Shown: positions 1,612 to 44,100, counted from the first letter of the stretch. The stretch is 51,160 bases of DNA from a virus (IMGVR_UViG_3300049218_000313:1-51160), one strand, 5' to 3'. Notes: generated by a model from the letters alone, not told the origin. Numbers and translations: made by a program.

Positions 1612-2301
1612 TCAGTGCTGGCTGGCAGAAGCCAGCGGCACCGGAATGACGTTGTGTGATCCACAATCGGCGCACTGAAGTGCTGCGCCCTTGCCGTGAT
1701 TGCCGCGACGCAGCTGCAAGTTCGAGATGTCGTTGTTCTGACGGTCCTTGTCGTTCACGTGGTGGACGGTCTCGTCCTCGGTGAGAAGACGCCCGAGATG
1801 CTTGGCCGTCACGAGGCGGTGCTCGAGGCAGTAGCGCGCGTCGGTCGTCTTGATCTGCGCCATCGGATAGAACGGGTCGTCGGGGCGCACAAGGACGAGG
1901 ACGTAGCCACCGTCAGTGACGACGCGGCCGCCCTTCCAGGCATAGTGCTCTTCGCCCTGCTGGAAGCCCTTCGGTCTGAGCGTAACACCATGCTCTTTCA
2001 GGAACCGCCGGATCGTCGAAGAACTCACGCCGAACTCCGCAGCCAGCGGCTCTGTCGCAGTGCCTTTCAGGTACCGGTGGATGATGTGGTCTCGCTGCGC
2101 ATCCGACGGCGTGAAGATAAAGTGGCTGCCGTCTCGTCGCCCCCTCTTCATGGGGATGCCGTGCCGGCGCAGCGCCTGCCTCACCATCCACGGCGACACA
2201 CCACCAAGAGTCTGCGCGATCTGTCCGGCGTTCATGGAAGTAGTCCGGTACAGGTCGACAGCACGTTGTTCCTTCTCCTCAGTCCAACCAGTCTTCAGCA
2301 T
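1612..2301 (-). CDS. Free-standing HNH homing endonuclease with N-terminal HTH repeats
   Basis: EHRLV..KHLGRLL..DETVHHVN..DRQNNDISNLQL HNH motif, a WKGG..GGYV upstream motif, two HTH-like segments (AGQIAQTLGGVSPWMVRQAL; LAAEFGVSSSTIRRFL) and a terminal CxxC. Confidence 0.85.
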   Translation of the reverse strand: MLKTGWTEEKEQRAVDLYRTTSMNAGQIAQTLGGVSPWMVRQALRRHGIPMKRGRRDGSHFIFTPSDAQRDHIIHRYLKGTATEPLAAEFGVSSSTIRRFLKEHGVTLRPKGFQQGEEHYAWKGGRVVTDGGYVLVLVRPDDPFYPMAQIKTTDARYCLEHRLVTAKHLGRLLTEDETVHHVNDKDRQNNDISNLQLRRGNHGKGAALQCADCGSHNVIPVPLASASQH

Positions 2302-2336
2302 GTAGTCCTCCTCGAGCGCCTTATGCCGCTAGGAGG

Positions 2337-12819: not shown

Positions 12820-13521
12820 ATGGGAAGACGAAGACCCGAACCTCCGCCCGGATTCCTGGACAAGTCAGCCACCGCCAAGGAGCTCGACGTATCCATCGAC
12901 ACGGTGACCGCGCTGGTGCGCCGAGGAGCGCTCGTACCTCACTTCTTCGGCCAGCGCCGGTACCCCTTCTTCCGCATCCCGGACCTGCACGAGCTGTCTC
13001 TCGCACGCCGCGACAGTACCAACCTACAAGCTGTACGGGCCATGGCACTTCAGGCGCTTTCCGCCGCGCGTCGCACCGAGACACGGGTGGACGAGCTGTG
13101 CGCGCAGCTCGGCATCGACCACATCATCCTTCAACGAGACGAGAGCTCCCTGCGCACCTTGCTGCAAGAAGCCCAGCAGGACTTCGAGACCGCACGCGTG
13201 CGCGATGCTGGGTGGGTGCGGTACTGGAGCAGCTGCTTCTTCGCGATGGACGAGCTCTATCTCGAGCTCGCCGAGACGGTCACCGGCGTCAAGGACGCGT
13301 GGAAGATCTACCTCGACCTGGCCAACCGGCTCGCCAAGGCACTCGTCGAGGAGCAGGACGACGGGCTTCTCCTGGTCTCGAGGTACCTAGCCAGCGCCCA
13401 GAGGCATCTGGTGCACGTGAGCTACCTGCACTGCCGCCGCATGGGCAGCGGGCGCGTGGGCAAGGTGGTCTTCGACGGCCGCGCCTCGGCGGTCGATGAG
13501 CTGTCCGCGCTTCTGTTCTAG
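12820..13521 (+). CDS. HTH (MerR/excisionase-like) DNA-binding protein
   Basis: N-terminal LDKSATAKELDVSIDTVTALVRRGALVP...FFRIPDL winged-HTH pattern followed by a helical domain. Its stop overlaps the TerL stop in CTAG. Confidence 0.7.
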   Translation: MGRRRPEPPPGFLDKSATAKELDVSIDTVTALVRRGALVPHFFGQRRYPFFRIPDLHELSLARRDSTNLQAVRAMALQALSAARRTETRVDELCAQLGIDHIILQRDESSLRTLLQEAQQDFETARVRDAGWVRYWSSCFFAMDELYLELAETVTGVKDAWKIYLDLANRLAKALVEEQDDGLLLVSRYLASAQRHLVHVSYLHCRRMGSGRVGKVVFDGRASAVDELSALLF

Positions 13522-16391
13522 CCCTGGTCGATGGGTCCGCGGTAGCCAGTGCGCAGGGGACCCTGTCCCGGCAGCTCGCGGATGGGGCTGATGATGTCCG
13601 GGCGGGGGACCAAGATCATCGACACGAGCAGGCAGTACAAGATGGAGTGGAACGCATCGTCGGGGCGGTCGGGGCGGTGGTTGTACTGAATCATCCGCAG
13701 CTGGTTGTTGTACTCGGCGTAGATGTTCAGCATGTCGTTGGCGTAGGGGTCCTCGAACTCCTCCCAACGCGGGAACTCGAGCTGCTTGCGCTTGATGGCG
13801 TTGAACAGGTCGCTCATCACCTCGGTGCGCACCATCTGCCAGCGGCGGAAGGCAGGGTTCCAAAGAACCTTCTTCTTGCTGCGCGCCATGTACTGGTACT
13901 TGTGGATGCGCTTGGGGCCGAACTTCCGGGTGAGGTGGTCGTTTCGGTCGAAGCCGCCGCCGTAGTCGGCGCCGATGAGCCGGACATTGAAGTACTGAAG
14001 CATCTCGTCGATCTTAGCGAGCTGCGGCTCGGGGTCGACGTCCTCGCCGGTAAAGCGGTGGATGTAGAAGACGCGGAAGCGCTGGTTCACGTAGGTCCCC
14101 AGCGTCATCACCGTGTAGGTGTTCTCTCCGGTATTGCCCAGGTAGGCGATACGGCCGTTGCGCTCCGTCACGATGAACCCAGAAGGCACCGCGCAGCAGT
14201 ACACCTTGCCGTTGTAGGGCACGCGCGTGACGGAGGAGGACGGTGTGTTCAACTGGTAGTCGCGCCCTTCCGACCACAGAGCTCTCCAGCGCGTCTTGTG
14301 GTTGCCCTCGGCAGGCTTGTGCAAGCGAACGACGCAGCGGAGACCGAGGCGGATACAGAGCTCCTGGAAGTCTTCGCACAGACCCTTTGACGTCGAGTAG
14401 AACGCGCCGCCCGTGCAGCCTTCGCGCGGGTCCGTGTAGCCGTCCCCTCGAACAAGGGCCTGGAACAAGATGCGCAGCTGTCGCACCGACAGCTGCAGGA
14501 ACTGACGGGGGATGCGCTTGGTGTCCGATGACGTGCCGATGTTGTCGGCGTACCAGGACCAGTACTGCTTGCCGTAGATGGTCCAGTTCACGTCCCCGGT
14601 CTTCTCGTTAGGGAAGGCCGTGAAGGGGACCGCCATACGCTCCAGGCATGCCTGCATCAGCAGGTAGGTTTCGTGGTTGACCGTCTCCCGCTGCGACATC
14701 TTCACGCAGGACGGTCGGTCGCCGTCGTAGCAGACACCGGCCTCTGTGATCAGGTAGCCGAGCAGCTCCAGCCAGCTGTCCATCGTGAACGTGCGCGCAT
14801 TCGAGCCGGCATAGCCAGGTCCGCGTGGAACGGCGGGCAGGCAGAAGGTTTCTACTTCCTTCCCCTGCCAGGTGACGTGCCCCACGAACTGAACGTTGCC
14901 TCCACGCGCGGCGGTTTCACCGGCAGACTCCACGACCCACTGGTCCCGCTGTGCGACGGTCACGCGCATCTTGTGCACGTCGTTGACCAGCACGTCCAGA
15001 CCGCCCTTGGTCTCGAAGTGCAGTAGCGGCTTGTTCCAGTCGCGCACCGTACGCGCCAGAGGCAGGACGAAGGTCATCTCACGGGTGTCAGGGTCCCACT
15101 GCGCAACGCGATCTTCGTCGGTCAGGTCACGGAAGTACTTGAAGCCGCTCTCCGTGAGGATGCGCGTCTCCTCGTCGTGGCAACCCCAGTCGATACCGGC
15201 GAAGACGGGTTGGCTCGCCGCGAGCGCCTTGTAGGCGTCAAGCGCAGCGGGGTGCATCGTGATGTCCGGCTTGCTGCAGTCACGTACCTGAGCGCGCGTC
15301 AGCGGCCGCAGCCCCGAGTCGTACGAGATGCCGAGGACCTCGTTGTAGAATCGAGCTCGGTCGTACCGGCCGTAGTCGAGCATGATCTCGTCCCACGACC
15401 GCCAGGGCACCATCAGCTGCGGAATGCGGTAGGACTCGAAGATCCCCGCTTCCTGGAACTTCGACCACGTAGCATCTGGGTGCATCGGGTTGATGAGCTT
15501 CCCGCACTTCTCGCAAGACAACCCTGCGCGCTGGATGTTCTTCTCTCCGAGCACGTTCCACCACCGACCCGCCGCGCCAGCGGCGGCCGAGCCGCAGCGG
15601 TCGCAAGGCACCATCCATTCGCCCATGGTGCTCATGGGCTTGCCCTTGGACGTGCCGCTTCGGTAGTACTCGAGGACGTTGTCCATCCCCTTGGGGGTTC
15701 CCGCGTAGAGGAACCGGCGCCACTGCTCTGGAGCGTGGCTGAGCGACTGCTCGATGACCGGGATGTTGTCCGAGAGGATGTCCTGCAGCTCGTCGAGCGC
15801 CAGGCACCAAGCAGGAATGCCTCGGGTTCGGTCGGCATTGAGGAACGCGTAGCGCAGCGTGATCTTCGAGCGATTGATGAACTGCTTCTCGAAGACGTTC
15901 TGCTGCAGGAGCGACGTTGTGAACGCCTTCAGCACATCGCTGGTCTCGAGCGGCTCCTTGATGCGGTCAACCGAGAAGGTCTTCGTCTGCGTGGCCGAGG
16001 GGGAGACGTAGAGCGTGCGGAAGGCGGACACCATGCACGAGTAGGTGATGAGCCGGTTGCCGAGCAGCGTCGACTTCTCGACTTGACGGCCGCAGAAGAG
16101 CAAGACGCGCTTCGCCGACGTGTCGTAGATGTCCCGCATGTGCCGACGGCCTTCGAACGAGAAGTTCTCGTAGCCAAGCCCATCGGCGCGCGGCATGCGG
16201 AACGCCCACTCGGTGAACTGCGAGGGCGCTATGTTGGGCACGAACGGAGACTTCTTGTCTTTGTCCGGTGAGAAGGTGAAGTCCTCCATGCGGTCCGGCT
16301 CGGGGCACCAGGGAATCCCGCGGTCCGCGTCGTAGAGCTCCTCGTCTGTGAGCGCGCGCTCGAGCTCGTACTCGACCTCCGCCGGGGTCAT
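13518..16391 (-). CDS. terL: Terminase large subunit (lambda GpA-like ATPase plus RNase H nuclease), intein-containing; start uncertain
   Basis: Walker A-like CGRQVEKSTL, Walker B LALDE, coupling motif AGTP, CxxC..CxxC, FYNEVLG, nuclease GIDWG|TGE, ADYGGG and terminal PDDAFHS. Confidence 0.88.
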   Translation of the reverse strand: MTPAEVEYELERALTDEELYDADRGIPWCPEPDRMEDFTFSPDKDKKSPFVPNIAPSQFTEWAFRMPRADGLGYENFSFEGRRHMRDIYDTSAKRVLLFCGRQVEKSTLLGNRLITYSCMVSAFRTLYVSPSATQTKTFSVDRIKEPLETSDVLKAFTTSLLQQNVFEKQFINRSKITLRYAFLNADRTRGIPAWCLALDELQDILSDNIPVIEQSLSHAPEQWRRFLYAGTPKGMDNVLEYYRSGTSKGKPMSTMGEWMVPCDRCGSAAAGAAGRWWNVLGEKNIQRAGLSCEKCGKLINPMHPDATWSKFQEAGIFESYRIPQLMVPWRSWDEIMLDYGRYDRARFYNEVLGISYDSGLRPLTRAQVRDCSKPDITMHPAALDAYKALAASQPVFAGIDWGCHDEETRILTESGFKYFRDLTDEDRVAQWDPDTREMTFVLPLARTVRDWNKPLLHFETKGGLDVLVNDVHKMRVTVAQRDQWVVESAGETAARGGNVQFVGHVTWQGKEVETFCLPAVPRGPGYAGSNARTFTMDSWLELLGYLITEAGVCYDGDRPSCVKMSQRETVNHETYLLMQACLERMAVPFTAFPNEKTGDVNWTIYGKQYWSWYADNIGTSSDTKRIPRQFLQLSVRQLRILFQALVRGDGYTDPREGCTGGAFYSTSKGLCEDFQELCIRLGLRCVVRLHKPAEGNHKTRWRALWSEGRDYQLNTPSSSVTRVPYNGKVYCCAVPSGFIVTERNGRIAYLGNTGENTYTVMTLGTYVNQRFRVFYIHRFTGEDVDPEPQLAKIDEMLQYFNVRLIGADYGGGFDRNDHLTRKFGPKRIHKYQYMARSKKKVLWNPAFRRWQMVRTEVMSDLFNAIKRKQLEFPRWEEFEDPYANDMLNIYAEYNNQLRMIQYNHRPDRPDDAFHSILYCLLVSMILVPRPDIISPIRELPGQGPLRTGYRGPIDQG
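14133..15182 (-). mobile_element. Intein with LAGLIDADG endonuclease in the TerL nuclease domain (350 aa)
   Basis: Block A CHDEETRILTESGF, block B VNDVH, LAGLIDADG-like LLGYLITEAG and LFQALVRGDG, blocks F/G YNGKVYCCAVPSGFIVTERNGRIAYLGN, +1 Thr. Confidence 0.92.
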
Positions 16392-16446
16392 CTCCGATAG
16401 TGACCGCGGCTTCTCGTGTCTGTGCTGTATGTTGAACGAGGCCAAG

Positions 16447-16779
16447 ATGTCAGTACAACCTAACGCAAGAGTGGACGAGATGCTCAACAACCTCTTCGCG
16501 AGCGTACAGCGCGCAGGCCCCGTGTTCACCGGGCAGGCGCAGCTGCTGCCAGAAGGCGAGGGCTACAGGGTCGTCGTACCGCTGGTACCACACGCGTTCA
16601 ACGACAACGACCTGGGCTCCCGCGTGCAGAAGTCCCTCGCAAACTACATCCGCGCGTTCGTGCGCGAGAGCGGCTGGCGCAGCAAAGGCGGCAGCTTCAA
16701 GCGCGGTTACTTCACGCTCGACGTCGCCGCATCGAGGGCTGCGTCGAGCTCGTCGCAGAAGCGCAACGCCATCTTGTGA
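16447..16779 (+). CDS. Hypothetical protein (110 aa)
   Basis: ATG 16447 (MSVQPNARVDEML) with GAGG upstream and globular composition; overlaps the convergent gene by 73 nt. Confidence 0.55.
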   Translation: MSVQPNARVDEMLNNLFASVQRAGPVFTGQAQLLPEGEGYRVVVPLVPHAFNDNDLGSRVQKSLANYIRAFVRESGWRSKGGSFKRGYFTLDVAASRAASSSSQKRNAIL

Positions 16780-20328: not shown

Positions 20329-20982
20329 TCAGGACGTCAACAGGATAGCCGACAGGGAGGCAGAAGCCGAAGGGGACTTGGTGAGGATCATGACGCCGTA
20401 GACCTGGTCGGTGGGGTAGATGGCCGTCGGCGAGCCGATGGGGCCCGTTGTCAGGGCCTGGTAGTCGAAGCCCGAGTCCTCGAGCGTGGTGAACGAGTCG
20501 TAGCCGACAGCAAGAAGAACGAAGGGCCCGGCCGTGAGCGCTTCTTGTAGTTCCGCGAGCAGGTTGATGGCTGGCAGCTTCACCGCGAGCGCGGCCTCGA
20601 TGAGCAAGCCCACACCGCTCACGTTCAGCGACAACCCAGCGCTGATCGACAGCGACGCCGAGAGCGTAGCTGCGAGCTGGGCGGCGATGTTGGGCAAGCC
20701 CAGTGTGAGGATGAGGCTGACCTGCGCCTGGATCTGCACGAAGGCGGCAATGAGGGCCTCGAGGGCCGCGAAGGGGTCAGAGATCTGCAGGGTGACCTGC
20801 GCCTGCACACCGATGGCCGCACTAAGCTGCGCCGAGAGGTCCGCTGCGAGGGCGCCCAGACCGAAAGAACCCGTCAGCATCAAGTCGAACTGAGCGAGCA
20901 GGGGGACCAGAAGACCGATCTGCGCAGTAAGCCCGACGTTGATGGCCCCGAGCGGGAACTCTCCGATGTACGCGACGCTCAT
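20329..20982 (-). CDS. Hydrophobic Ala/Leu-rich baseplate-associated or membrane protein (217 aa)
   Basis: ATGA overlap with the spike gene; almost no charged residues. Confidence 0.65.
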   Translation of the reverse strand: MSVAYIGEFPLGAINVGLTAQIGLLVPLLAQFDLMLTGSFGLGALAADLSAQLSAAIGVQAQVTLQISDPFAALEALIAAFVQIQAQVSLILTLGLPNIAAQLAATLSASLSISAGLSLNVSGVGLLIEAALAVKLPAINLLAELQEALTAGPFVLLAVGYDSFTTLEDSGFDYQALTTGPIGSPTAIYPTDQVYGVMILTKSPSASASLSAILLTS

Positions 20983-22241
20983 GCCAGCACCGCAGGATTA
21001 CCCGTGAGGATGCTCCCGTAGATGGGGCCCGTCGTCAGAACCGCCGGGTTGGGGCCTGCGGACGGCGGGTTGGTGAAGGTGACGACACAAGGCACTGCCG
21101 CCGCCTGCACGCTCACCAAGTCAGACAGACGAGCCACGCCCGACTGGCCCGCGCCGAGGCGTACGACGCTGCCCTTGACGTGGGTGTATGCGCCGCCGTC
21201 GATGTCGAAGCCGTTCTTCGCGGTCATCGACGCCGTGTCGTTCGCCTCGAGGGCGAAAGGCTGCGTGAGCTTGAACGTGAGCTGCTTGGCGACCTGAATC
21301 ATCAGGTTGCCTTCTGTGCGCAGCAGCGTGTTGCCCTGCCGGTCGAAGGTGAACTTCAGCACCGAGTCCTGCACCGTGGCCGTTGCGTCGGCAAGGTCTC
21401 CGCTCTGGGCGACGAAGCCCTTCGGGCTGACGGTCACCTCGAAGATGATCGGGTTGCTGCCCTGCCCATCATCGCCCTGCGCCACCCCGGCCTCGACTAG
21501 AGTCACACCTCCGTCGGGTTCTGGCACCGGGCTGTAGACCTTGCCGCACGCGAGCTTGATGTCGGCGTACTGGTCGGCCGTGAAGATGCGGAAGGTCTGC
21601 ATGTACTGGCTGGCGATCTGCGTCTGCGAGGGGCCCGTCTGCAAGCCCCAGACTATGGAGCCGTTGGAGTTGTGGTGCTCGTAGTTCTCGCTGATGTCCG
21701 TGACGAGGTTGTTCAGCGGGATGAAGATGCGCTGCGCGAGCTCGGTAGCGCCGATCTGAAGGACGCCGCCGCGGTGCAGGATGACGAAGTTGTCGTCGCG
21801 CGTGCGCATCCAGATGTCACCCGGCACTGGCTGCGGGCGGCCACCAGCGAACGAAGCGTCAGTGGGGTTGGGTGTCTGCTGACCGTGCGAAGTCGTGCCC
21901 GCGGGCGCATCGTCGGCCGAGTCGTTGACTGTCTCTACGGCCATGACGAAGGCAATCACGAAGGGCGGCGAGCTGTCCGACGGCAGGCAGACCATGGCGG
22001 TGGCACCTACCTCGGGAAAGACGGAGATCCCCTCGCCGTTGGAGTGGTGCAAGTAGGGTGAGGACACCTGGATGTTGAAGTACCTCTTGCGGTCGTACTG
22101 CGCGATGATGTCGACCGTCCACTTCGTGAGGTTGATGTTCACGATGCTGCCCTGCACGATGCGCGCAGCCACATGCCCCTCTTTCGAGGTCATGGAGGTA
22201 CGGAACTTCGTGGAGTTGAACTGTCTCTCGGAGGAGTCCAT
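20979..22241 (-). CDS. Baseplate spike/hub protein (gpV/gp5-like OB fold plus beta-helix)
   Basis: N-terminal GSIVNIN..WTVD...FPEVGATAMV OB-fold pattern, C-terminal beta-repeat region and GVARLSDLV spike-tip-like motif. Confidence 0.6.
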   Translation of the reverse strand: MDSSERQFNSTKFRTSMTSKEGHVAARIVQGSIVNINLTKWTVDIIAQYDRKRYFNIQVSSPYLHHSNGEGISVFPEVGATAMVCLPSDSSPPFVIAFVMAVETVNDSADDAPAGTTSHGQQTPNPTDASFAGGRPQPVPGDIWMRTRDDNFVILHRGGVLQIGATELAQRIFIPLNNLVTDISENYEHHNSNGSIVWGLQTGPSQTQIASQYMQTFRIFTADQYADIKLACGKVYSPVPEPDGGVTLVEAGVAQGDDGQGSNPIIFEVTVSPKGFVAQSGDLADATATVQDSVLKFTFDRQGNTLLRTEGNLMIQVAKQLTFKLTQPFALEANDTASMTAKNGFDIDGGAYTHVKGSVVRLGAGQSGVARLSDLVSVQAAAVPCVVTFTNPPSAGPNPAVLTTGPIYGSILTGNPAVLA

Positions 22242-22244
22242 CGC

Positions 22245-25200
22245 TCAGTAGTGGTGTGCGGGCACGTCCTTGAGGTGCTCCATCCCGGGCTTGAGCGAGT
22301 CCTTCGAGGTGAGACCGAACTCCGCACCGTAGGCCAACGCAGGCACGGGGTGGGTGCCGTGCAGGTGTGAGACACTGTTCGTCGCCGCAGCTTCTGCCAG
22401 CGTCTCACGGAGCTTCTCGTGCTGCAGCTTCGCCATCCAGTCTTCTTGTAGCTCAAGAGGCATGACCTGGATACCCCTGAGGACCGGCTTGTGTTCGATG
22501 GGCTTCTTGCCCTCTCGCACGAGCTCCTGGTTCATCTTGTGGATGACGTTGAGCGGGCGGTAGTCGCCGCGCAGTACGTCCGGGTGGTCCCCGGGATCGA
22601 CGATCTCCGTGAGGTTGCCCATGGCGCGCACCACCGTCTCGATGGCGCGGCGCTTTACCCCCTCCCCCTCGTACAGGTTGTAGATCTCCTTGGCGAGGTG
22701 GTTCTGAACCTCCTCCATGGAGCCCGTGGCCCTGTACAGATGGTGTGGGTTCACGAAGGTGCGGTTGGGGTCGGACAGGTTCTCGCCGGCCTTGACGTGC
22801 TGACCGACAGTAGGTGGCGACCAGGGGATGTAGTCCGCAGCCAGGGCTGCGTGCGGCAGGCTCTGGTGTAGCGGAGCTCCACTCGGGTCCTTGCCGACGT
22901 GGTGCGCCACCCCGTCGATGAAGATGTCTACCCCCGTGGCCGTGGGCTGGATCTTCTCGACCTTGCCACTCTTCATCGCCAGCGTGGCCTCGTCAGCAAT
23001 CTTCCTGGGCAGGTCGGTCAGCTGCTCGACCCGCTTGAAGGAGTTCAGCGCCTTGGACCCCTCACCCGCACCGCCGGTGTGGAAGCTCTTCATCGCCAGC
23101 TGCACCGAGCGCTCCCCCACAGTCTGCGCCGCCATGACGCCGAGGTTGGTACCGAGCTCGTACTCACGCCCGCTCGAGCTCAGGCCGGCGCACTTCTGAC
23201 AGATGCCCTTCTCGCTCTCGCACTTGAGTGGAGAGCGCACGACGATGCGTGCGTCCTTCTTCGCTGCCTTGATCTGACGCACGACGTCGGGCGACAGCAG
23301 CGTGCCCGGGGGGAAGTCGAGATGGCCCTGCTTGAAGCCCTGTTGCAAGTAGCGGTCGTGGACGTCCTTCTCGTTGATGTCGAGCACGATGCCCTTGGAA
23401 GTGCCGCAGTCGGGCTCGTTCACCAGGATGTTCATCGTGTTGTTCATCAAGAGCTTGGTCATGTACCCAGGCCCGCTGACCTCCTGCACCTTCATGACCG
23501 TGCCGCGGCGGGCGCCGTGTAGCTGCGTCCAGTAGCCGCCCACGTCGAGCCCTTCCGAGTAGCTCTTGGTCACAGGCGTCGGGATGGGGCGATCGGCCGA
23601 GTCCTTGTAGATCATCGGCGCCAGCACCATCTGCTTGTACTGGTCCCACTCCGGCTTCACACCTGCCTTGTACATCGTGAAGAGGTTGTTCGGGTGCTTC
23701 TCCTGCTCCTTCTCGTGCAGCGCCTGCATCTCCTTCTCGGCCTGGCGGTAGACCGCGACTGACTGCCGGTCCTTCTCAGCCAGTGTTCCCTTGCCGCCGT
23801 GGATGTTGTCGACCTTCTGGTGTGCGACGCCCAGTACGTGCGAGCGCACGCGGGTGTCCGGCGTGAAGTCGCTGAGCGATAGCGTGTGAGCTCCGACCGG
23901 GATGTCGATGGTCTTCTTCGGGTCGGTGGCCGCCACGGGACTGCTGCCCATGGAGTGGAACGACAGGATGTGCCCTGCCGCGTTGGGGCGCGGCACGGTG
24001 ACGATGCCGAACGCAGCGCCGTTGCCGAGGTCCTTCATCCGGTTGACGATCTCACCGTACTTCGACGAGTGAACCGGGTCCTTGCCGATCTGCGTGAGCA
24101 GCGCGCTCAGGCCTTTCTTGTCGATGCGGTAGTCGAGGTCGTGCAGCGTCTTGGCAGCCATGTCCTCGGGTAGCGCGCTGGCCAATAGAACGCGCCCTGC
24201 CGTGGTCTTCTTGCCGTCCATGTGGACGATGTCGGTGGCGTGGATGTCGCCCTTGTTCACCGCCTCGAGCACTGCGCCGGGGTGAGCGAACGTCTTGTGA
24301 CTGTCCTTGCCGACGAGCGAGAGCTTGTAGAGACCGAGCGCGCTCTCGAGAGTGGGCTGGTACATCACCTTGCCCGTCGCCTCACTGAAGAGGTTGTTCG
24401 AGGGCATCATCTTGCGCGCCTCGGCCACCGCCTCGCGCGTGATGGGAACGAAGGCGCTCATCGTGTCGCCGTCGAAGTCGGCGTTGAAGCCGCCCACGAC
24501 GAGCGGGTGGATCTTGATGGCGTTGCCCTCGACGACCCTGGGCTTGAAGCCCTGTACGCCGTACTTGTGCAAGACAGGGTCGCGCTTGAGCAGCAGCGGG
24601 TGCTCGTCCATCGCCTTGTCGAGCGCGCGCCACACCGCCGGCGTCTTCTTCATCAGCGCGTCGGGTCCACCGAGCGCGTTCTTGATGACGCCCATGTCGA
24701 CCAGCTTTCGGATGACGAACGGGCGGTAGAGGTCGAGCGCGGCGTGCTTGGGGATACCCACCTCGTCCAGTCCGAGAGCCGGCTCAGGGACGATGGTCGA
24801 GCGCATAGTCAGGTCCTGTCGTCGCTCGGTGAGCCTGTCCTGGAAGAAGCCGTTCTTCGGGGAGTTGCCGGAGATCTGATGCAAGAGGCCTTTGTGCTCG
24901 GCGCTCTCGTAGCTCTTGCCGAAGCCGATGATGGCCTTCACGCCGTCGTAGTAGTCGCGACGAAGGTCCTTCTTGTCGTCGTCGGTGAGGTTCTTGGCAA
25001 GCACCGGGTCCTTGAGCTTGTCGTTGAACTTCGCGAAGTCGGAGTAGAGCGTGTTGACGTCGGCGAACTTGATGCTGCCATCGGGCAGCTGAGAGACCGG
25101 GCGCATCACCGGCGGGATGACCGGCAGGTTATGCAGAATGTACGCCTCGCTCGGCTTGAGCTTCAGCTGGTCGAGCGCGCGCAGGTACTTCACCTTCTTG

Positions 25201-28200
25201 AGGACGCGGTCTACCTCGCTGCCCTTCACCGTGCGGAGACGCGCCTCCGCCTTCGGCAGCTCCTTGCTGACGTCGATACGGTCGAGCAGCATCTTGATGC
25301 CCGCACCCCCGGTCACCCCGGCACCGGCGTCGGTGATGTTGCCGCTGGCCGTGACGCCCTTCTGTCCCTGCACGACAGCGAGGAAGTCCTTTCCCGTAAG
25401 ACCAGTGAGGCTCTTGATGGGCGACTCGAACAGGGGGTTGGGCACCGGCTCCGCAAGACCGATGCGCGTCCACTGCTTGCCCCCGTGACCTCCAGTCCTC
25501 GCCTCGTCGAACAGTCCGCCCGGGCGCGGCTTGAGGTCTCCGTTCTTGTCGACCTTGGACTCGACGAGGTCTGCCGGATTGGGCAGCTCCTTCTTCGCCA
25601 GCTGAAGGATCTGGGCATCCGTCATCGGCGTGAGCATGATCTCGTGGCCCTTCTTGTCCACGTTCACACCCGCACCTCGCAGCATGTCGGTGAACTTCTG
25701 GAAGGCAAAGGTGGGCTTGGGCGTGGGGTAGGGAGCGCCTGTCTGCATCGCAGCCCAGATGCGGTCGTGGTCCGAGGGCCATCGCTTCGCTGGGTTGGTC
25801 TGCGGGTCAGGACCCTCCGACTTGTACGTCTGCATCTCGCGGATGTTGGCCTTGGCGCCGTGCGCGAGTAGCGCGTACATCCCGAGGGTGCCCATCGACT
25901 GGCCACCCGTGCCAGAGCCGCTCGAGGGCTGCAGGTTCAGGTCCCAGCCCTGCTGCGGAGCGCCCATGATGTTCATCCCGCTGCGCACCGAGAGCTTCTT
26001 CTCGACCTGATGGACGAGCTTCAGGTGGTGCTGCGGACCGACCATCACCTGCCCGAGCGACTTCTTGGTGGCAGGGTCGAACAGCTCCTCGGTGTCCGAC
26101 AGCCCATGCTCCTTGAGCTCTGAGCGTACGCGAGCGAGGGCGTCAGTGTTCGGTTCGAAGTTGCGAACGACGTAGGTCTTGCCTGTCTTCTCGGCGATCT
26201 TGCCCGCGGCCGTCTCGAGCAGCTGGCCCATGTTCATGCGCCCCGGCACACCGCTCGGATTGAGCGCGACCTCGATGTGCTTGCCGTCCTTGGTGTGCGG
26301 CATCTCGGCATCTGGAAGGATCATCGTGACGATGCCCTTGTTGCCGTACCGACCGGACATCTTGTCGCCCACCTGCATCGGCTCGACGGTGCGCACGTGC
26401 ACGTCCAGGCCGTTCTTGTTCTTGTGGACAGCGACGACTTCACCCTCGAAGTCGCTGTCCCAGCGCAAGCTCTTGTCGGTGTGCGAGCCGCTCATATTCT
26501 TGCGGATGGCCGCGAGCCCAGAACGGTCCTTGATGTTGTACGGCTTCATCGCCGCGATGAGCGGGTCGCCTGGCTGCACCCGCTGGCCCACGCGAATGAT
26601 GCCGTTGTCGTCGAGCTTCGCGTACTGCTCCTTGCTGTAGAGCCCGGGCTGCTTGAGGTGGAACTGCTTCTTGTCGAGGACGGTGGCCTCGTCCTTCGGC
26701 AGCGTGTTCTTGGTGAGGTGCTCGCTCGACAGCTTGTCGGCCGCGCTCTGCGAGATGACGATGCCGTCCTCGAAGTTGTAGCCCTTGAAGGGGATGTACG
26801 CGGTGCGCAGGTTGGTGCCGAGTGCCAGCGTCCCGTTCTTCGAGTAGTTCGTGTCGGCGATGACCTGCCCGGTCTTCACCGCGTCCCCGACCTTCACGAG
26901 GGGCGTCGAGTGCAAGACACCCTTGGCGTCGTTGAGCGGGTAGTTGTGGTACAGCTGCACCTCATGGCGCTTGCCGCCATGGTCCTCGAGGATGATGGCG
27001 TCCTTCTTGACGTCGACGACCTTGCCATCCACCGTGGCCTGATGCGACGCCTGCCGTCCAACGAGCTCCTCAAACGTGGGCGTAGTCGACATGCCCGTGC
27101 CGACCTGCACCAACGCGGGTGTGCGATGCACGAGGGAGATGGCCTGCTCGATGTGACGGCTGGCCATCGAAGCGCGTCCGCCGCTGGTGTTGGCCAGGAA
27201 GGGCACGAGGTTTGAGGTCATGTTGAAGAGCTGCCACGCGTGAGGCAGCACGTACTGCGCGTCGGAGAACTTGCCGTCGCGGACGTCGTTCTTGCCCGCG
27301 GTGGTCATACGCACGACGCCATGAAGTGGCTTGGGCTTGCCGCGGTCCCAGCGCACCTGGTCGGGTAGAACAACATTGGCGTGCAGGAACTGGCCTGCGC
27401 CGACGTCCTCCATCTGACCCGTGGCGATGTTGTGCAGGCGGATCTTCGCTTCGTTGCCGACCTTGCGTACGCCGACAGGCAACCGGAGCGTGACGCCTGT
27501 CTTGTTGCCCTCGGGGGTGTTGATGGGATCGAGGAACCCGAGGTGCGTCGGGTTGATGAACTTCGCCTCGTCCGTGATCGAGCGCTCGCTCTTGATGCCG
27601 CCCGTGCCCATCACGGTCGTCTGCATCGCCGCCGAGACCATCTCCACGGGGTTGATCTGCGAGGCCACGCGCGCTGCGCTGTTCTTGGTGAAGGCCTCAC
27701 GCAGCGGTCTGTTGAAGACATCGAAGCGGACAATCTCGCGGATGTCCGACTTGTGAAGCTGCCGCACGATCTTCGGCTTGATGGTCTTCGACCCTGCGTT
27801 ACGGATGGTGTCGTGTGCGAAGTCTCCCACCGTCACGAGGTCCTTGAAGACGAGCGAGTCTCGGTCGTCTTCGGGATGCCCGCCCTGCACCTTCAACATC
27901 TTCTCGGTGGCCAGCCGCAGAGCCTCGCCCGTGACGTTGGAGAACGGCTTGCCCACCGTGATCGCCGTCGCTTCGGGGCGCAGCGGTGAGGCCGTCATCA
28001 TCTCGTGGAAGTACGCGGCCGCGGTCTCCCTATCGGGAGGGGCCACCTTCTTGTTCAGCTTGTAGAACTGGTCGAGGACACCGCTGGACTTGCGAGCGTC
28101 GCGGTTGGCCGCGAAGATCTCGTGCCCCCACGCCTTCTCGAGCTCGTGGTCCTCGACTCCCATCGTCTTGAGCAGCGGGTAGAGCGGCATGCTCGCCTTG

Positions 28201-28685
28201 CTCCCGCCGTAGTGCATGGAGAAGGTCTTCTTCGTCGGGTCGAGCATCAGGTCGAAGGCGCGCGTACCCTTGCTGGCGACGTTGAAGTGCGCCTCGACCT
28301 CACCCGTAGCGTCACGCCGCGTGTAAATGTTGGGCTTGAGGCGCCACTGGTTGTCGACCTGGTACTCCTGACCGTCGACGATGTACGAGTAACGCCCGGT
28401 CGTCTTGGGGATCTCCGCGACACGCACGCGGCGCTGGTCCACGATAGCGCCCGTTGTGTTGTCCTTGAGGGTCAGATGGGCGAACACTGGTACGGCCCAG
28501 GTGTCCCCCGTGACCTTCGCGTGATGCTGCCCGCGGATGTCATCCGTGTGCAGGGTGTCCTTCACCTCGAGCTTGTCGAGGTGCAGCGTCTGGGACCGGC
28601 CCTTGACGGGGAACTGTCCCTGGATGCCGTCCAGGACGCGCCCCTTCAGGTGCTCGAACGCTTCTTTGGGGTCGAGGTAAGCCAC
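22245..28685 (-). CDS. rpoBC: Single-chain fused beta-beta' multisubunit-type RNA polymerase (2146 aa)
   Basis: beta motifs: INPTHLGFLDPINTPEG, GYNFEDGIVIS, GDKMSGRYGNKG, LNPSGVPGRMNMGQ, LKLVHQVEKKLSVR, GGQSMG. beta' motifs: LPVIPP.MRP, LLKRDPVLH, catalytic NADFDGD (24465-24485), HGARRG bridge helix, RSPLKC..GICQKC, trigger loop GERSVQLAMKSFHTGG. The junction is near 25655. Confidence 0.95.
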   Translation of the reverse strand: MAYLDPKEAFEHLKGRVLDGIQGQFPVKGRSQTLHLDKLEVKDTLHTDDIRGQHHAKVTGDTWAVPVFAHLTLKDNTTGAIVDQRRVRVAEIPKTTGRYSYIVDGQEYQVDNQWRLKPNIYTRRDATGEVEAHFNVASKGTRAFDLMLDPTKKTFSMHYGGSKASMPLYPLLKTMGVEDHELEKAWGHEIFAANRDARKSSGVLDQFYKLNKKVAPPDRETAAAYFHEMMTASPLRPEATAITVGKPFSNVTGEALRLATEKMLKVQGGHPEDDRDSLVFKDLVTVGDFAHDTIRNAGSKTIKPKIVRQLHKSDIREIVRFDVFNRPLREAFTKNSAARVASQINPVEMVSAAMQTTVMGTGGIKSERSITDEAKFINPTHLGFLDPINTPEGNKTGVTLRLPVGVRKVGNEAKIRLHNIATGQMEDVGAGQFLHANVVLPDQVRWDRGKPKPLHGVVRMTTAGKNDVRDGKFSDAQYVLPHAWQLFNMTSNLVPFLANTSGGRASMASRHIEQAISLVHRTPALVQVGTGMSTTPTFEELVGRQASHQATVDGKVVDVKKDAIILEDHGGKRHEVQLYHNYPLNDAKGVLHSTPLVKVGDAVKTGQVIADTNYSKNGTLALGTNLRTAYIPFKGYNFEDGIVISQSAADKLSSEHLTKNTLPKDEATVLDKKQFHLKQPGLYSKEQYAKLDDNGIIRVGQRVQPGDPLIAAMKPYNIKDRSGLAAIRKNMSGSHTDKSLRWDSDFEGEVVAVHKNKNGLDVHVRTVEPMQVGDKMSGRYGNKGIVTMILPDAEMPHTKDGKHIEVALNPSGVPGRMNMGQLLETAAGKIAEKTGKTYVVRNFEPNTDALARVRSELKEHGLSDTEELFDPATKKSLGQVMVGPQHHLKLVHQVEKKLSVRSGMNIMGAPQQGWDLNLQPSSGSGTGGQSMGTLGMYALLAHGAKANIREMQTYKSEGPDPQTNPAKRWPSDHDRIWAAMQTGAPYPTPKPTFAFQKFTDMLRGAGVNVDKKGHEIMLTPMTDAQILQLAKKELPNPADLVESKVDKNGDLKPRPGGLFDEARTGGHGGKQWTRIGLAEPVPNPLFESPIKSLTGLTGKDFLAVVQGQKGVTASGNITDAGAGVTGGAGIKMLLDRIDVSKELPKAEARLRTVKGSEVDRVLKKVKYLRALDQLKLKPSEAYILHNLPVIPPVMRPVSQLPDGSIKFADVNTLYSDFAKFNDKLKDPVLAKNLTDDDKKDLRRDYYDGVKAIIGFGKSYESAEHKGLLHQISGNSPKNGFFQDRLTERRQDLTMRSTIVPEPALGLDEVGIPKHAALDLYRPFVIRKLVDMGVIKNALGGPDALMKKTPAVWRALDKAMDEHPLLLKRDPVLHKYGVQGFKPRVVEGNAIKIHPLVVGGFNADFDGDTMSAFVPITREAVAEARKMMPSNNLFSEATGKVMYQPTLESALGLYKLSLVGKDSHKTFAHPGAVLEAVNKGDIHATDIVHMDGKKTTAGRVLLASALPEDMAAKTLHDLDYRIDKKGLSALLTQIGKDPVHSSKYGEIVNRMKDLGNGAAFGIVTVPRPNAAGHILSFHSMGSSPVAATDPKKTIDIPVGAHTLSLSDFTPDTRVRSHVLGVAHQKVDNIHGGKGTLAEKDRQSVAVYRQAEKEMQALHEKEQEKHPNNLFTMYKAGVKPEWDQYKQMVLAPMIYKDSADRPIPTPVTKSYSEGLDVGGYWTQLHGARRGTVMKVQEVSGPGYMTKLLMNNTMNILVNEPDCGTSKGIVLDINEKDVHDRYLQQGFKQGHLDFPPGTLLSPDVVRQIKAAKKDARIVVRSPLKCESEKGICQKCAGLSSSGREYELGTNLGVMAAQTVGERSVQLAMKSFHTGGAGEGSKALNSFKRVEQLTDLPRKIADEATLAMKSGKVEKIQPTATGVDIFIDGVAHHVGKDPSGAPLHQSLPHAALAADYIPWSPPTVGQHVKAGENLSDPNRTFVNPHHLYRATGSMEEVQNHLAKEIYNLYEGEGVKRRAIETVVRAMGNLTEIVDPGDHPDVLRGDYRPLNVIHKMNQELVREGKKPIEHKPVLRGIQVMPLELQEDWMAKLQHEKLRETLAEAAATNSVSHLHGTHPVPALAYGAEFGLTSKDSLKPGMEHLKDVPAHHY

Positions 28686-28745
28686 CGTTCACATCCTGAC
28701 CAACTGCCCGCAGCGTACCGCGCACGAAAGAACGCGCGCAAGGCA

Positions 28746-28754
28746 GGGATAAGA
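28746..28754 (+). promoter_or_regulatory. GGNATAAG candidate phage promoter
   Basis: GGGATAAGA in the divergent gap; the same motif occurs at 2319-2327(-), 38988-38996(+) and 44062-44070(+). Confidence 0.5.
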
Positions 28755-29589: not shown

Positions 29590-30197
29590 CGACTGAGTAC
29601 CTCGAGTTGTATCCGACTGGGCACGTCTGTGCGGATTGTGGTGACCAGATCAAGTACGCCGAGGAAGGATGGCTGCTACAGATCGTACAGCCGCAGCGGC
29701 TGAACGGGGTCACGTACCTGCACAACGTCATAGACGAAAACGACCCTGACGGCGACTTCTTGTACGACCCCTACTTCTTCTGCTTCGAGTGCATGGAGAC
29801 TCTGCTCTCCGACCTACGAGATGAGATTGCCGACGAACCCCCGGTCAAGGACCTGCCGGGGCACAGCGGCTTCGAGTGCTTCTGCTGCAGCAGCGAGATT
29901 CGCAAGTGGGAGTACACCGGGAGCCTCAGCCTCGGCGAGTTCCGCGTATCGAAGCGTGCTCCCAACGGCGTGCGGGGGCCACACTTCGTACCCAACTGCG
30001 AGCCCGAGCTCGTCTGCATCTACTGCCTGGTGCTTCTAAACGAGGGATGGATCGACATGTGGGAGAACCTCTCTCACACGGGCGAGTGCAACGACTGCAT
30101 CCAGCTGCGCTGCTGGCGCTACGGTGGTTCGTGCTCCTGCGCGTGCCACAACGGCACGGTGACTGAAGTAACACAAGATGGAGAACAGAATGTCTGA
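29574..30197 (+). CDS. Cys-rich multi-zinc-finger protein (207 aa)
   Basis: CADC, CFEC, CFCC, CIYC, CNDC..C and CSCAC; the two halves look internally duplicated. Confidence 0.7.
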   Translation: MGTELTTEYLELYPTGHVCADCGDQIKYAEEGWLLQIVQPQRLNGVTYLHNVIDENDPDGDFLYDPYFFCFECMETLLSDLRDEIADEPPVKDLPGHSGFECFCCSSEIRKWEYTGSLSLGEFRVSKRAPNGVRGPHFVPNCEPELVCIYCLVLLNEGWIDMWENLSHTGECNDCIQLRCWRYGGSCSCACHNGTVTEVTQDGEQNV

Positions 30198-31407
30198 CAC
30201 AATGACGGCGACTCTTTCGACCGGCAGCCTCGAGAAGCTCCTGAGCATCGCGATGCTCGCGCCGATGGACGACCCGCACTCGCCGAGGTGCAGGTGGGGC
30301 GCGCCCATCCTCTTCTGGGGCCCGCCGGGCATCGGCAAGTCTGGCCGCGTCGAGCAGGCCGGCGCGAACGTCGGGCTGCCGGTAGAGACGTTGTACTTGT
30401 CGACCTTGCAGCCCGAGGACCTCTCGGGCATCCCGATGCAGGACCCGCAAACGGGCGGCGCTCGTCGCGTCTGCGATCTGCCGCAGATCCTCAACCTCAT
30501 CGAGGCCAAGAAGGGCATCCTCTTCCTCGACGAGCTGACCACGGCCAGGCCCGCGGTTCAGGGCGCTGGCCTCGGCGTCGTCTACAACCGCAAGGTCGCA
30601 GGCAAGTCGCTGCCGGGCCGCGTGCGCGTCGTCGGCGCCGCGAACCCGCCCGAGGAAGCCGCAGGTGGGTGGAACCTCGCTCCCCCCATGGCCAACCGCC
30701 TGCTGCACTTCTCGGTCGGCGTTCCTGACGTCGAGGAGTGGACGGCGTGGCTACTGGGCAACTCGAACGAGGAAGTCATTCCCGTCGAGCAGGGCGAAGA
30801 GGTCGTCACCTCTTCGTGGAACGAGCACTGGTCGAAGGTCTGCGGTCTCAGCGCAGGCTTCATGCGGCGCAACCCGCGTCTGCTCTACAACATGCCCAAG
30901 CAGGGCCACAAGGACCGCGGCCGCGCGTGGTGCTCACCGCGCTCGTGGGAGGTTGCCCTGCGCTGCATCGCCACGGCCAACGCGCTCGGCCTGAGTGAGT
31001 ACGGCACGGACCTGCTGACCGCTTCGTGCGGTGAAGGACCGGCGAAGGAGTGGGTGGAGTGGCTGGCCTACGCCAACCTGCCCGACCCCAAGGACATGCT
31101 CGAGAAGGGATGGCGCGCGGACAAGCGCCGTCTGGACGTCGCGTACGCGGCGTACTCCGCGGCTATCGGCTACACGCTCGGCAAGAAGGACAAGGACGAG
31201 CAGAAAAAGTACGCCATCATGGCGTGGACGCTTCTCCGTGTGGCGGTCGAGGACAACCTCGCCGACCTGGCTCTCGCTCCGGCAGCGTCGCTGATGCACG
31301 CCGGGTACACGACAAAGGCCGGCCCTGAGATGCAAGCCGTCTGCAGGTCCGTCATCGCACGCTTCGGCGAAACGGGCCTGGCCAACTTCTCGAGGAAGAA
31401 CACGTGA
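30190..31407 (+). CDS. MoxR-family AAA+ ATPase
   Basis: Walker A GPPGIGKS, Walker B ILFLDE, sensor 1 GAANP, arginine finger PMANR, sensor 2 SPRSWE. Confidence 0.9.
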   Translation: MSDTMTATLSTGSLEKLLSIAMLAPMDDPHSPRCRWGAPILFWGPPGIGKSGRVEQAGANVGLPVETLYLSTLQPEDLSGIPMQDPQTGGARRVCDLPQILNLIEAKKGILFLDELTTARPAVQGAGLGVVYNRKVAGKSLPGRVRVVGAANPPEEAAGGWNLAPPMANRLLHFSVGVPDVEEWTAWLLGNSNEEVIPVEQGEEVVTSSWNEHWSKVCGLSAGFMRRNPRLLYNMPKQGHKDRGRAWCSPRSWEVALRCIATANALGLSEYGTDLLTASCGEGPAKEWVEWLAYANLPDPKDMLEKGWRADKRRLDVAYAAYSAAIGYTLGKKDKDEQKKYAIMAWTLLRVAVEDNLADLALAPAASLMHAGYTTKAGPEMQAVCRSVIARFGETGLANFSRKNT

Positions 31408-32945
31408 ACGCGGTCGACAACAGGTTCGACCCTGGTGAAGAGAAGATGGCCGTGGCACGTGCCGCGGCCATCCACAAGGCTCCTTACTTCGCCAGCGTCA
31501 TCTACGGCTTCGTGTTCACCCCCCTCGAGGGGATCGGTACGATGCTCTGCACGCCGAGGCTCATCCTCGGCTATGACCCCGCATGGGCGGCCGCCGCCCC
31601 TGTAGAGGTACTGGCTGCGGACATCGCGCACGAGGTGCACCACTACATCCGCAAGCACTTCGAACGCGCCGTCAGTATCGACGACCCGGCCTTGTTCAAC
31701 ATTGCCGGCGACCTCGCCATCAACCCCCAGCTCATTGCCGAAGGTTGGAAGCTGGCCGCGGAAGCCATCTTCCCCAAGAACTTCGGCCTGCCTGACGGGC
31801 TGACGACCGAGGAGTACTACCAGCTGCTGCGCCAACAGAAGCAGAAGGGCGGCGGCGGGAAGGACGAAGAAGAGAAGCCCGGTCAGGGTGGCGCGCAAGG
31901 ACAGGGACAAGGGGAACCCAACAGCTCGCAGGCACCACCGCAAAACCCCGGCTCCGGCAAGCCGTCACCGGGTCAGGAACAGGGGCAACAACCTAACCAG
32001 GGACAGGGACAGCAGCCCGGCTCTGGGAAACAGTCTGACCAAGGACCTCCTGGTAGTGGCGGAGGCCAACAAGGACAAGGCAAGGGCGTCTGCCAGGGGC
32101 ACTGCGGTGGCCTTGGTGGCACCTCCGAGCACAAGAGCCTGGAAAAGCAGCTCGATGGAACTGCGGACCTCGGGCGCACTACGGCCGAGATCAAGACCAT
32201 CGAGGTGCGTCTCGCCAACGACATCAAGAAGCACATCGAGCAGCACGGGCGCGGGTCCGTGCCTGCCGGTCTGCAGGACTGGGCATCCGCCATCGAGGAG
32301 GAGTCGCACATCCGCTGGCAGGACGAGCTCGCACATGTTCTTCGCGACACCACCGGCCGCGTACAGGCTGGTGGTGACGACTTCTCGCTGCGCCGCCCCT
32401 CTCGGCGCTCGCTGCTGCGCGGGTTCTTGCGCCCGGGCATGATCGAGAACCTGCCCGAGGTGGCCATCATCCGCGACACCTCTGGTTCCATGGGCCAGAA
32501 GCAGCTCACCGACGCCTGCAAGGAGTCCTACGCCATCATGCAGGCGCTCGGAATCGATGAGGTGTGGTTCGCCGACGCAGACACGCAGATCGCCACTCCG
32601 TGGAAGCGCGTCGGGCCGCAGTTCTTCGTGGAGCTAAAAGAAGCACACGGCCGCGGAGGCACTGACTTCCGCAGCGGCATCGAGACGGCGCGGAGGCTCA
32701 ATCCGCGGCCCGACCTCATTGTGTACGTGACCGACGGCGACGGTACGACCACGAAGATGCCGCCGCCGGACGTGGCGGTCGTCTGGGCCATCGTGCCCAG
32801 CTACTACAACAAGGCCCCTGCGAAGTGGGGCCACTGCGTCATCATCTCCGACGACCCCAAGGTCAAGAAGAAGGGGACGGTCTTCGGCGCGGACAACGAG
32901 TACGACACTGGCGAAGATGACAACGGAGAGGAGCTCGACGCATGA
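31404..32945 (+). CDS. HExxH metallopeptidase-like plus vWA domain protein (DUF2201-type)
   Basis: IAHEVHH, FNIAGDLAIN, a Gln/Gly-rich linker, MIDAS DTSGS, GRGGTDF and VTDGDG; GTGA-coupled to the MoxR gene. Confidence 0.88.
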   Translation: MNAVDNRFDPGEEKMAVARAAAIHKAPYFASVIYGFVFTPLEGIGTMLCTPRLILGYDPAWAAAAPVEVLAADIAHEVHHYIRKHFERAVSIDDPALFNIAGDLAINPQLIAEGWKLAAEAIFPKNFGLPDGLTTEEYYQLLRQQKQKGGGGKDEEEKPGQGGAQGQGQGEPNSSQAPPQNPGSGKPSPGQEQGQQPNQGQGQQPGSGKQSDQGPPGSGGGQQGQGKGVCQGHCGGLGGTSEHKSLEKQLDGTADLGRTTAEIKTIEVRLANDIKKHIEQHGRGSVPAGLQDWASAIEEESHIRWQDELAHVLRDTTGRVQAGGDDFSLRRPSRRSLLRGFLRPGMIENLPEVAIIRDTSGSMGQKQLTDACKESYAIMQALGIDEVWFADADTQIATPWKRVGPQFFVELKEAHGRGGTDFRSGIETARRLNPRPDLIVYVTDGDGTTTKMPPPDVAVVWAIVPSYYNKAPAKWGHCVIISDDPKVKKKGTVFGADNEYDTGEDDNGEELDA

Positions 32946-38923: not shown

Positions 38924-38987
38924 CGCTGACTCCTCGCTGTGAACGTACTAGGCATGCCGCCGTTCCCGCAAGTATCGCAGGGGGGCA

Positions 38988-38996
38988 GGCATAAGG
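38988..38996 (+). promoter_or_regulatory. GGNATAAG candidate phage promoter at the start of the replication block
   Basis: GGCATAAGG lies 34 nt upstream of ATG 39031 in the divergent gap. Confidence 0.5.
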
Positions 38997-43921: not shown

Positions 43922-44100
43922 CCACCCCTACATCTTGGGGGTGTTGAGCCGAAACTACTAGAGCTGGCGCCTCGCGCAGGACGTGTTGACGGACCCCCTC
44001 CCGGGGAGTCATGTTGACTGCCCTGCGCGAGGAGCTGGTCGCAACTTCCTTAGCCCCTACGGGTATAAGGCGGCTGCCGTACCAGCACGTCTCTCTGGAG
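43922..44100 (+). ncRNA. Candidate structured RNA or ssDNA element (multi-hairpin) upstream of the replicative helicase
   Basis: Largest intergenic gap in the window. It has three hand-folded hairpins containing G-U pairs, an 11-bp perfect inverted repeat and three TGTTGA repeats. Confidence 0.4.

Follow-up and report, generated by a model that had tools for sequence, protein, structure and literature searches.

We found that the viral DNA stretch IMGVR_UViG_3300049218_000313:1-51160 (51,160 nucleotides, referred to as the window) encodes a bacterial-type RNA polymerase (RNAP) in which beta and beta' form a single chain. The gene (22245..28685, minus strand) encodes 2146 amino acids (aa) plus stop and was identified as a fused beta-beta' RNAP from the open reading frame (ORF) list, the translation, Pfam, PHROG and NCBIfam searches and full-length homologues. 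It is a form of the phage multisubunit-type RNAP, with a family visible in databases. The enzyme's most likely partner is a sigma factor that the phage encodes and probably packages alongside it, the two acting at a conserved promoter of the phage. The best reading of the results, which we consider probable, is a packaged holoenzyme of two proteins, the fused RNAP and the phage sigma, that serves early transcription.

Architecture of the fused RNA polymerase

The RNAP ORF is intact and uninterrupted, starts with GTG, and has an N-terminus (VAYLDPKEAF) fitting the family consensus MxxLDPxxAF. The Pfam domains along the protein are Rpb2_3 (residues 340-402), Rpb2_6 (564-902, E 7e-63), Rpb1_1 (1142-1226), Rpb1_2 (1357-1427) and Rpb1_5 (1712-2034). 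Both beta domains pass their cut-offs (Rpb2_3, 33.1 bits, cut-off 21; Rpb2_6, 213.4 bits, cut-off 23.4), the beta' domains Rpb1_2 (92.4 bits) and Rpb1_5 (67.4 bits) are above theirs, and Rpb1_1 is under its Pfam cut-off (27.6 bits vs 39.7). The PDB sequence matches of the beta' module are bacterial beta'. The original prediction, made from the sequence of the window, had described one 2146-aa ORF with beta motifs followed by beta' motifs; the ORF, the Pfam order and the catalytic motif NADFDGD (residues 1401-1407; 24465..24485, minus strand), read from the translation and invariant in the family alignments, confirm this description.

The junction and the structural elements were mapped by L-INS-i alignment of 11 family members with beta and beta' from E. 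coli and S. aureus. The boundary between E. coli beta 1342 and beta' 1 falls between RNAP residues 1014 and 1015 (window ~25643/25644), at most 4 codons away from ~25655, where an almost linkerless joint had been proposed. The beta module (residues 1-1014; 25644..28685, minus strand), delimited by the L-INS-i map and Pfam, contains the lobes, the Rif/fork-loop region (333-399), the double-psi beta-barrel (DPBB), the flap and the C-terminal clamp. The beta' module (residues 1015-2146; 22248..25643, minus strand) contains the zipper, lid, clamp helices, rudder, active site, bridge helix, second Zn site, trigger loop and jaw. All universal elements are present in the alignment to E. coli, including both barrels and the catalytic and sigma-docking elements, and the bridge helix and trigger loop align fully. 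The retained second Zn site (C1760, C1822, C1829, C1832; 23190..23408, minus strand) aligns to E. coli beta' 814-898, and its cysteines are nearly invariant across the family.

The junction region (residues 1007-1020, AGVNVD-KKG-HEIMLT; 25626..25667, minus strand) is predicted by the AF2 model to be a tight beta-hairpin with no linker. The model, covering residues 640-1500, has pLDDT 88 and pTM 0.80; the junction strands lie at model positions 368-373 and 376-381, in a block of pLDDT 88-94. Foldseek matched this model to the cyanobacterial gamma subunit and to bacterial beta' at 3.6-4.6 A.

In bacterial enzymes, sigma region 4 docks at the beta flap tip and sigma region 2 at the beta' clamp helices. 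The flap-tip region of the fused protein (residues 713-737; 26475..26549, minus strand) aligns to E. coli beta 887-915 in 25 of 29 columns, and the clamp helices (residues 1209-1255; 24921..25061, minus strand) have all 46 columns aligned to E. coli beta' 264-309 and are helical in the AF2 model.

The fused RNAP is 603 aa shorter than the E. coli subunits, because E. coli beta and beta' total 1342 + 1407 = 2749 aa; a shortfall of about 600 aa had been predicted. The description of the enzyme as streamlined holds in part. What is lost is mainly the E. coli lineage-specific inserts (beta SI1, 23 of 119 columns aligned; beta SI2, 0 of 103; beta' SI3, 0 of 188) and the N-terminal Zn ribbon of beta' (8 of 36 columns aligned), together with the first 34 residues of beta'. 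Compared with S. aureus, whose beta and beta' ORFs have 1185 and 1215 codons, the RNAP is only about 245 aa shorter. Processing of the RNAP as a polyprotein by the head protease at K-x-A was considered and rejected: 11 such sites were counted vs 14.5 expected, with no enrichment.

Family distribution and phylogenetic position

A word-indexed search detected more than 120 clusters at 56-77% identity to the fused RNAP, nearly all of 2120-2170 aa, on contigs of up to ~200 kb. An exhaustive search with the beta' half gave 11,925 matches, and the best 150 representatives at 50% identity all have E < 1e-159, most of them with the beta' start near residue 1020-1050. In IMG/VR, 66 loci were found at 38-72% identity, in genomes of 167-196 kb, some with terminal repeats. 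Across 107 aligned homologues the conservation is even over the full RNAP length, junction included. These sequence matches, which include more than 150 clusters at 50% identity, show the fusion to be real, old and widespread, and the fully fused family is large yet unstudied. An artificial origin of the fusion, through an assembly chimera or a sequencing frameshift joining two genes, is so improbable as to be negligible, given that the same architecture with a conserved junction occurs in hundreds of independent assemblies from several sources and that the junction is present in the cultured phages Arash and D69 too.

The longer family members carry LAGLIDADG inteins. Some members reach 4739 aa with up to five matched stretches (P0199, P0152, P0203 and others), suggesting several inteins per gene. 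A 204-kb contig (L165), binned in a Bacteroidales metagenome-assembled genome (MAG), has a 2873-codon open frame matching the RNAP at 36-39% identity.

The megablast search of the region against cultured phages gave zero matches. At the protein level the nearest cultured relatives are the Vibrio phages D69, D181 and D148 and Salmonella phage Arash (OQ632216), with 31-33% identity over 70-89% of the query. As a clue to the hosts, the annotation of the 13.6-Mb Pendulispora rubella chromosome (a myxobacterium) includes a 2045-aa homologue (LVJ94_35230, 59% identity), and the contigs binned in Myxococcota and Deltaproteobacteria MAGs include phage-like ones that bear the fused gene. A chromosomal RNAP copy would imply a prophage or its remnant, unexpected for a phage carrying its own RNAP.

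The tree from the concatenation of beta with beta' (37 rows, 1951 columns, LG+G4, quick search) places the fully fused family with Arash and D69 in one clade (100*). The 21 bacterial rows form a separate clade (100*), which includes the own rpoBC of the Myxococcota and Deltaproteobacteria MAGs that hold phage-like contigs. Because all 21 bacterial rows group without the phage family, the RNAP is not nested in the bacterial clade; this phylogeny had been proposed beforehand as a check, and its outcome agrees with the original prediction.

The phylogeny bears on the possibility that the gene is a recently captured and fused host rpoB-rpoC pair, still reliant on host alpha, omega and sigma. In PDB and NCBIfam the protein does match bacterial beta/beta' best, not archaeal sequences, and cellular beta-beta' fusions exist: the top NCBIfam matches are the models of these fusions (NF007172, NF011417), together with rpoC/rpoB. 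All these matches are far under the cut-offs, and the equivalog test for a cellular RpoBC fusion failed (NF007172, 481 bits vs 5372; NF011417, 463 bits vs 4632). Identity to bacterial beta' is only 25-37% in every phylum sampled, the Zn ribbon and the lineage inserts are lost, and the bacterial clade, 21 of 21 rows, excludes the phage family. We regard a recent host capture as very improbable.

Phage sigma factor and accessory subunits

The original prediction recognised no alpha, omega or sigma gene, which is true for the window; the alpha (PF01000, PF01193) and omega (PF01192) genes were also not found in the 137-kb record (74% complete) of this phage. A search for alpha also gave none in Arash, D69 and three other relatives, two of them 100% and one 91% complete. 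The claim does not extend to sigma beyond the window, where a full sigma70-family gene was detected. This gene, encoding 269 aa (G000:118112-118921, equal to L006:2113-2922, minus strand), is a homologue of Arash Gp10 (38% identity). Within the window, a weak Sigma70_r4 signal (1612-2301) was examined as a sigma candidate and rejected, being the helix-turn-helix of an HNH endonuclease.

The phage sigma matches Pfam Sigma70_r3 above the cut-off (41.8 bits), while Sigma70_r2 and Sigma70_r4 are below the Pfam threshold. It aligns over regions 2-3 to the NCBIfam FliA/WhiG, SigB and RpoD models, and its C-terminus is region 4-like by the motifs in the alignment. The AF2 model (pLDDT 87) gave sigma70-family chains for 50 of the top 50 Foldseek matches, with 230-300 aligned columns, including sigmaS, sigmaA and sigmaB. 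By these results the protein is a full sigma70-family factor with regions 2, 3 and 4 in order. The sigma sequences form 83 clusters and share their large contigs with the RNAP gene; of the 9 relatives checked, 8 have one copy. In the phage protein other residues stand in place of the tryptophan pair of sigma70 region 2.3, and this replacement may be linked to the unusual -10 core nATAAG (G for T at -7) of the phage promoters.

A second, non-virion RNAP paralogue was searched for and rejected: none is present in the record, in three 100%-complete relatives, in Arash or in D69. Only one catalytic beta' locus is present per complete genome, which leaves no second RNAP set.

Virion packaging

The original prediction proposed that the RNAP is packaged in the virion. 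The experimental support for this is indirect and comes from a relative: both RNAP homologues, Gp206 and Gp216, are abundant in Arash virions (PMC10585845). Mass spectrometry of Arash virions detected the RNAP protein Gp206 more often than any other protein (3516 spectra), the major capsid protein included, with 1210 spectra for Gp216 and 467, at 100% coverage, for the sigma factor Gp10 (PMC10585845). The gene position fits packaging as well: the RNAP gene is the first in the particle-gene block here, and in Arash and D69 it directly follows the portal gene.

Alternatively, the fused RNAP might be a non-virion enzyme, made during infection for middle or late genes, similar to the phiKZ nvRNAP, and the Arash signal a contamination by a very abundant protein. 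The Arash proteome also lists clearly non-structural enzymes, and with one RNAP per genome an intracellular role for the newly made enzyme is likely anyway. On the other hand, Gp206 ranks top by spectra, over the major capsid protein, the gene stands at the head of the particle-gene block here and, in Arash and D69, comes immediately after the portal gene, and a late-only enzyme could not launch the programme without being brought in. A solely non-virion enzyme is in our opinion unlikely.

Promoters

Two classes of candidate promoters were detected. The class I motif, GGBATAAGR (GG[CGT]ATAAG[GA]), has 4 copies in the window vs 0.43 expected by the motif search. The record holds 14 copies, almost all intergenic, sense-oriented and followed after 17-40 nucleotides (nt) by a ribosome-binding site and ATG. 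The core has, 17-18 nt upstream, an AA-centred -35-like element (GCAAG or GAAAG); the resulting bipartite pattern, GCAAG-N17-GGnATAAGr, is built like a sigma70-type promoter that has an extended -10. Class I sites stand in front of the HNH, MoxR/VWA and replication genes and of many small genes, and not of the particle-gene blocks. In the window they are GAAAG-N15-GGGATAAGA (28726..28754, plus strand), which is divergent from the RNAP gene, overlaps the class II element described below, faces the MoxR/VWA block and has the same position in relatives; the core GGCATAAGG (38988..38996, plus strand), 34 nt before a replication-type block; the core GGTATAAGG (44062..44070, plus strand), before the helicase-primase genes; and another copy of GGCATAAGG (2319..2327, minus strand), 17 nt before the HNH endonuclease gene.

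The class I core is enriched against the control in the complete relatives G003 (15 vs 2), G005 (13 vs 0) and G002 (24 vs 11) and in Arash (20 vs 8). In Arash, non-structural genes on the reverse strand have the motif (GGTATAAGr) 30-40 nt ahead of their ATGs. Phages with hosts from different phyla have the motif together with the phage RNAP and sigma, an argument for its being read by machinery of the phage itself.

The class II candidates face the particle genes. One, TTGCGC-N17-GGTACGCT (28712..28741, minus strand), is 26 nt before the RNAP GTG start and heads the RNAP/particle-gene block; the second, TTGCGG-N17-AGTACGTT (38942..38971, minus strand), is 18 nt before the 497-aa gene heading the portal block. 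The pattern TTGCGn-N17-(G/A)GTACGyT has 5 matches in the genome, 2 of them at the heads of particle-gene blocks. Relatives keep TTGCnC-N18-TAnnCT or GCTATACT upstream of the RNAP gene, and the class II element may correspond to TAAAAT in Arash. A scan for late promoters with GTACGyT alone was unspecific and was discarded, so that only the two bipartite sites at operon heads stand.

Two divergent intergenic regions (28712-28754 and 38942-38996) each pair a plus-strand class I site with a minus-strand class II site, overlapping in the first region. The two -10 elements are also positioned back to back in Arash (CCTTATACC|CTAAAATA; L002, around 15504 and 17280).

These promoters are relevant to a further alternative, in which the phage sigma steers the host core RNAP to GGnATAAGr promoters, similar to T4 gp55 and SPO1 gp28, and the fused RNAP initiates without this sigma, by means of another factor or of none. 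Phage sigmas serving the host core are common (PMC7824862), and the class II promoter before the RNAP gene resembles the canonical, host-type -35/-10. Against this, sigma and the fused RNAP co-occur across the family and are both in Arash virions, the phage core retains the clamp helices and the flap tip, and the -10-like core is kept in phages of hosts from different phyla, which fits a phage-borne reader. We consider a sigma dedicated to the host core an improbable explanation, and pairing of the phage sigma with the fused RNAP remains the preferred one.

Comparison with known polymerases

The enzymes of Arash, D69, D181 and D148 are the closest to the fused RNAP among cultured phages, belonging to the same clade with the same beta/beta' junction; Arash and D69 also share the homologous sigma, the lack of an alpha gene and a portal gene nearby. 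In Arash and D69, however, beta and the N-terminal part of beta' form a 1525-aa protein and the C-terminal part of beta' (~606 aa) is encoded several genes away, while here all are in one chain. The Arash-type enzyme has been annotated and detected, but without biochemical analysis.

The virion and non-virion RNAPs of the jumbo phages phiKZ and AR9 are likewise phage enzymes of the beta/beta' type without alpha and omega, one set of which is packaged for the early genes (PMC7598289, PMC7824862, PMC13282480). They consist of 4-5 polypeptides, in two paralogous sets and with no sigma70-family gene, as opposed to the one chain, one set and sigma described here, and they are also far more distant in sequence.

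The mReC phages (Weinheimer & Aylward 2020, PMC7481178) are uncultured tailed phages from metagenomes with a compact, deep-branching, bacterial-like beta (~1000 aa) and beta' (~900-1000 aa), resembling the fused RNAP in these features. In parts 10 and 11 of the 14 parts of their supplementary data 2, beta and beta' are separate genes in all entries. The mReC paper uses the terms fusion and fused for crAss-like phages only and never mentions sigma (PMC7481178). Capsid proteins of mReC phages match T4 Gp23 (PF07068); for the present phage, Pfam gave no match to the capsid gene candidate. We rejected mReC membership, the entries in those two parts being all split, and the two groups are set apart by description only.

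The cellular fusions (Helicobacter and Wolbachia type) also have beta joined to beta' in the same order. They have ~2840-2890 aa and work with alpha, omega and the host sigma. The phage protein differs in scoring far under the cut-offs of their models, and its family branches outside the bacteria.

The crAss-like phi14:2 gp66 and the N4 virion RNAP resemble the fused enzyme, as we interpret it, in being large, single-chain, virion-packaged and used for early transcription; N4 shares the packaged enzyme for early genes and possibly the use of host RNAP for late genes. Neither of them employs a sigma70-family factor. The phi14:2 gp66 is too divergent for beta/beta' models to detect (PMC7481178), and the N4 enzyme is a T7-like single-subunit RNAP (PMC7824862).

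In Cobetia phage Carin-5 (PV155638), an annotated phage sigma adjoins phage beta and beta' genes, which is similar to the pairing proposed here. Its subunits are separate (1083 + 927 aa), its branch is very long and the genes are not part of a particle-gene block. Carin-5 (L161:1041-7866) is a cultured marine phage with hypermodified DNA, and its sigma, adjoining both beta and beta', has 196 aa.

In the literature, no published account of a fully fused, bacterial-like phage beta-beta' enzyme was found.

Gene neighbourhood

The RNAP gene is the first of the minus-strand particle-gene block, so that its predicted place at the head of the structural operon holds. It is co-oriented with the following gene (20979..22241, minus strand), encoding a 420-aa probable baseplate hub/spike protein (gp5/gpV-like), which starts 3 nt past the RNAP stop. 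The original prediction had the spacing and the strand right, and the spike identity is plausible. The 420-aa protein has no Pfam or PHROG match; its protein-atlas neighbours are Phage_base_V, Gp5_OB and VgrG-type proteins (feature score 0.95, TM 0.4-0.54), and because the assignment comes from these neighbours alone it is kept at the level of a lead. The portal assignment follows from an identity of 31-33% with the portal proteins of Arash and D69.

The large terminase ORF (13518-16529, minus strand; 1003 aa) is about twice the usual length, and homology to the Arash TerL falls in two blocks ~350 codons apart within it, consistent with an intein. Divergent from the RNAP gene, the region 30178-32945 (plus strand) encodes a MoxR-like AAA ATPase (AAA_5) followed by a DUF2201 metallopeptidase/VWA protein. 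At 1612-2301 (minus strand), a gene with a class I promoter of its own encodes an HNH endonuclease (HNH_3), probably of the homing type, whose N-terminal part carries helix-turn-helix domains. Outside the window, ~7 kb (G000:55608-62715) are almost ORF-free by GC3-based gene calling, unlike the rest of the record, and may hold genes of different composition or RNA genes.

Proposed model and its significance

In the proposed mechanism, the end of beta would run into the start of beta' via the short hairpin, which probably substitutes for the assembly role of the alpha dimer and omega, and the clamp helices and flap tip of this core would be the surfaces held by sigma. The RNAP gene would be transcribed late, with the particle genes, from the canonical-looking TTGCnC-N17/18-TAnnCT promoter. 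The RNAP and sigma would then be packed into the head, ejected with the DNA, and start at GCAAG-N17-GGnATAAGr before the early and replication-type genes. The original prediction is confirmed in its observation and partly supported in its interpretation. The role of the RNAP in early transcription, its independence from host alpha, the core-sigma pairing and the assignment of promoter to enzyme are what we infer.

Several points weigh against the packaged holoenzyme. Virion presence was seen in the relative Arash only, and packaging in this phage would follow by homology. The Arash virion list has 116 proteins, including ribonucleotide reductases (PMC10585845), and carry-over of abundant non-structural proteins is possible because some of them are clearly non-structural. 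The sigma gene was not found in one relative (91% complete), and the class I core is not enriched in Vibrio phage D69 (12 vs 17 in the control) despite its sigma gene. The phage sigma could redirect the host core enzyme instead, and host alpha may be used, as far as can be judged from sequence. The record is incomplete (137 kb of the ~185-kb genome of an uncultured phage), and the tree was built without an archaeal outgroup, with the LG+G4 quick search only, and has the other phage RNAPs on long branches.

We tentatively extend the packaged two-protein reading, as a possibility somewhat short of even, to a self-contained two-polypeptide holoenzyme, without alpha and omega, which would be packed in the capsid, co-ejected with the DNA and able to read a lineage-wide promoter across host phyla, while the particle genes, including the RNAP gene, would be transcribed from host-type promoters. 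This would be an N4-like programme run by a cellular-type enzyme. The lineage-wide promoter would possibly, with similar reserve, consist of the -35 GCAAG, the 'GG' extended -10 and the -10 nATAAG with G for T at -7.

The RNAP lineage is very large, with hundreds of clusters in many habitats, and the cultured members (Arash and the Vibrio phages) put it within experimental reach. Direct comparison with cellular RNAP is possible because identity is 25-37% and every core element can be aligned. If the packaged holoenzyme reading is true, the fused RNAP with its sigma would be the simplest known bacterial-type holoenzyme, with two proteins instead of six, and a natural test of the need for alpha, omega and the beta' Zn ribbon. 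It could also be used as a compact, orthogonal transcription system with its own promoter, and would represent a third route to virion-borne early transcription beside those of N4/crAss-like phages and phiKZ.

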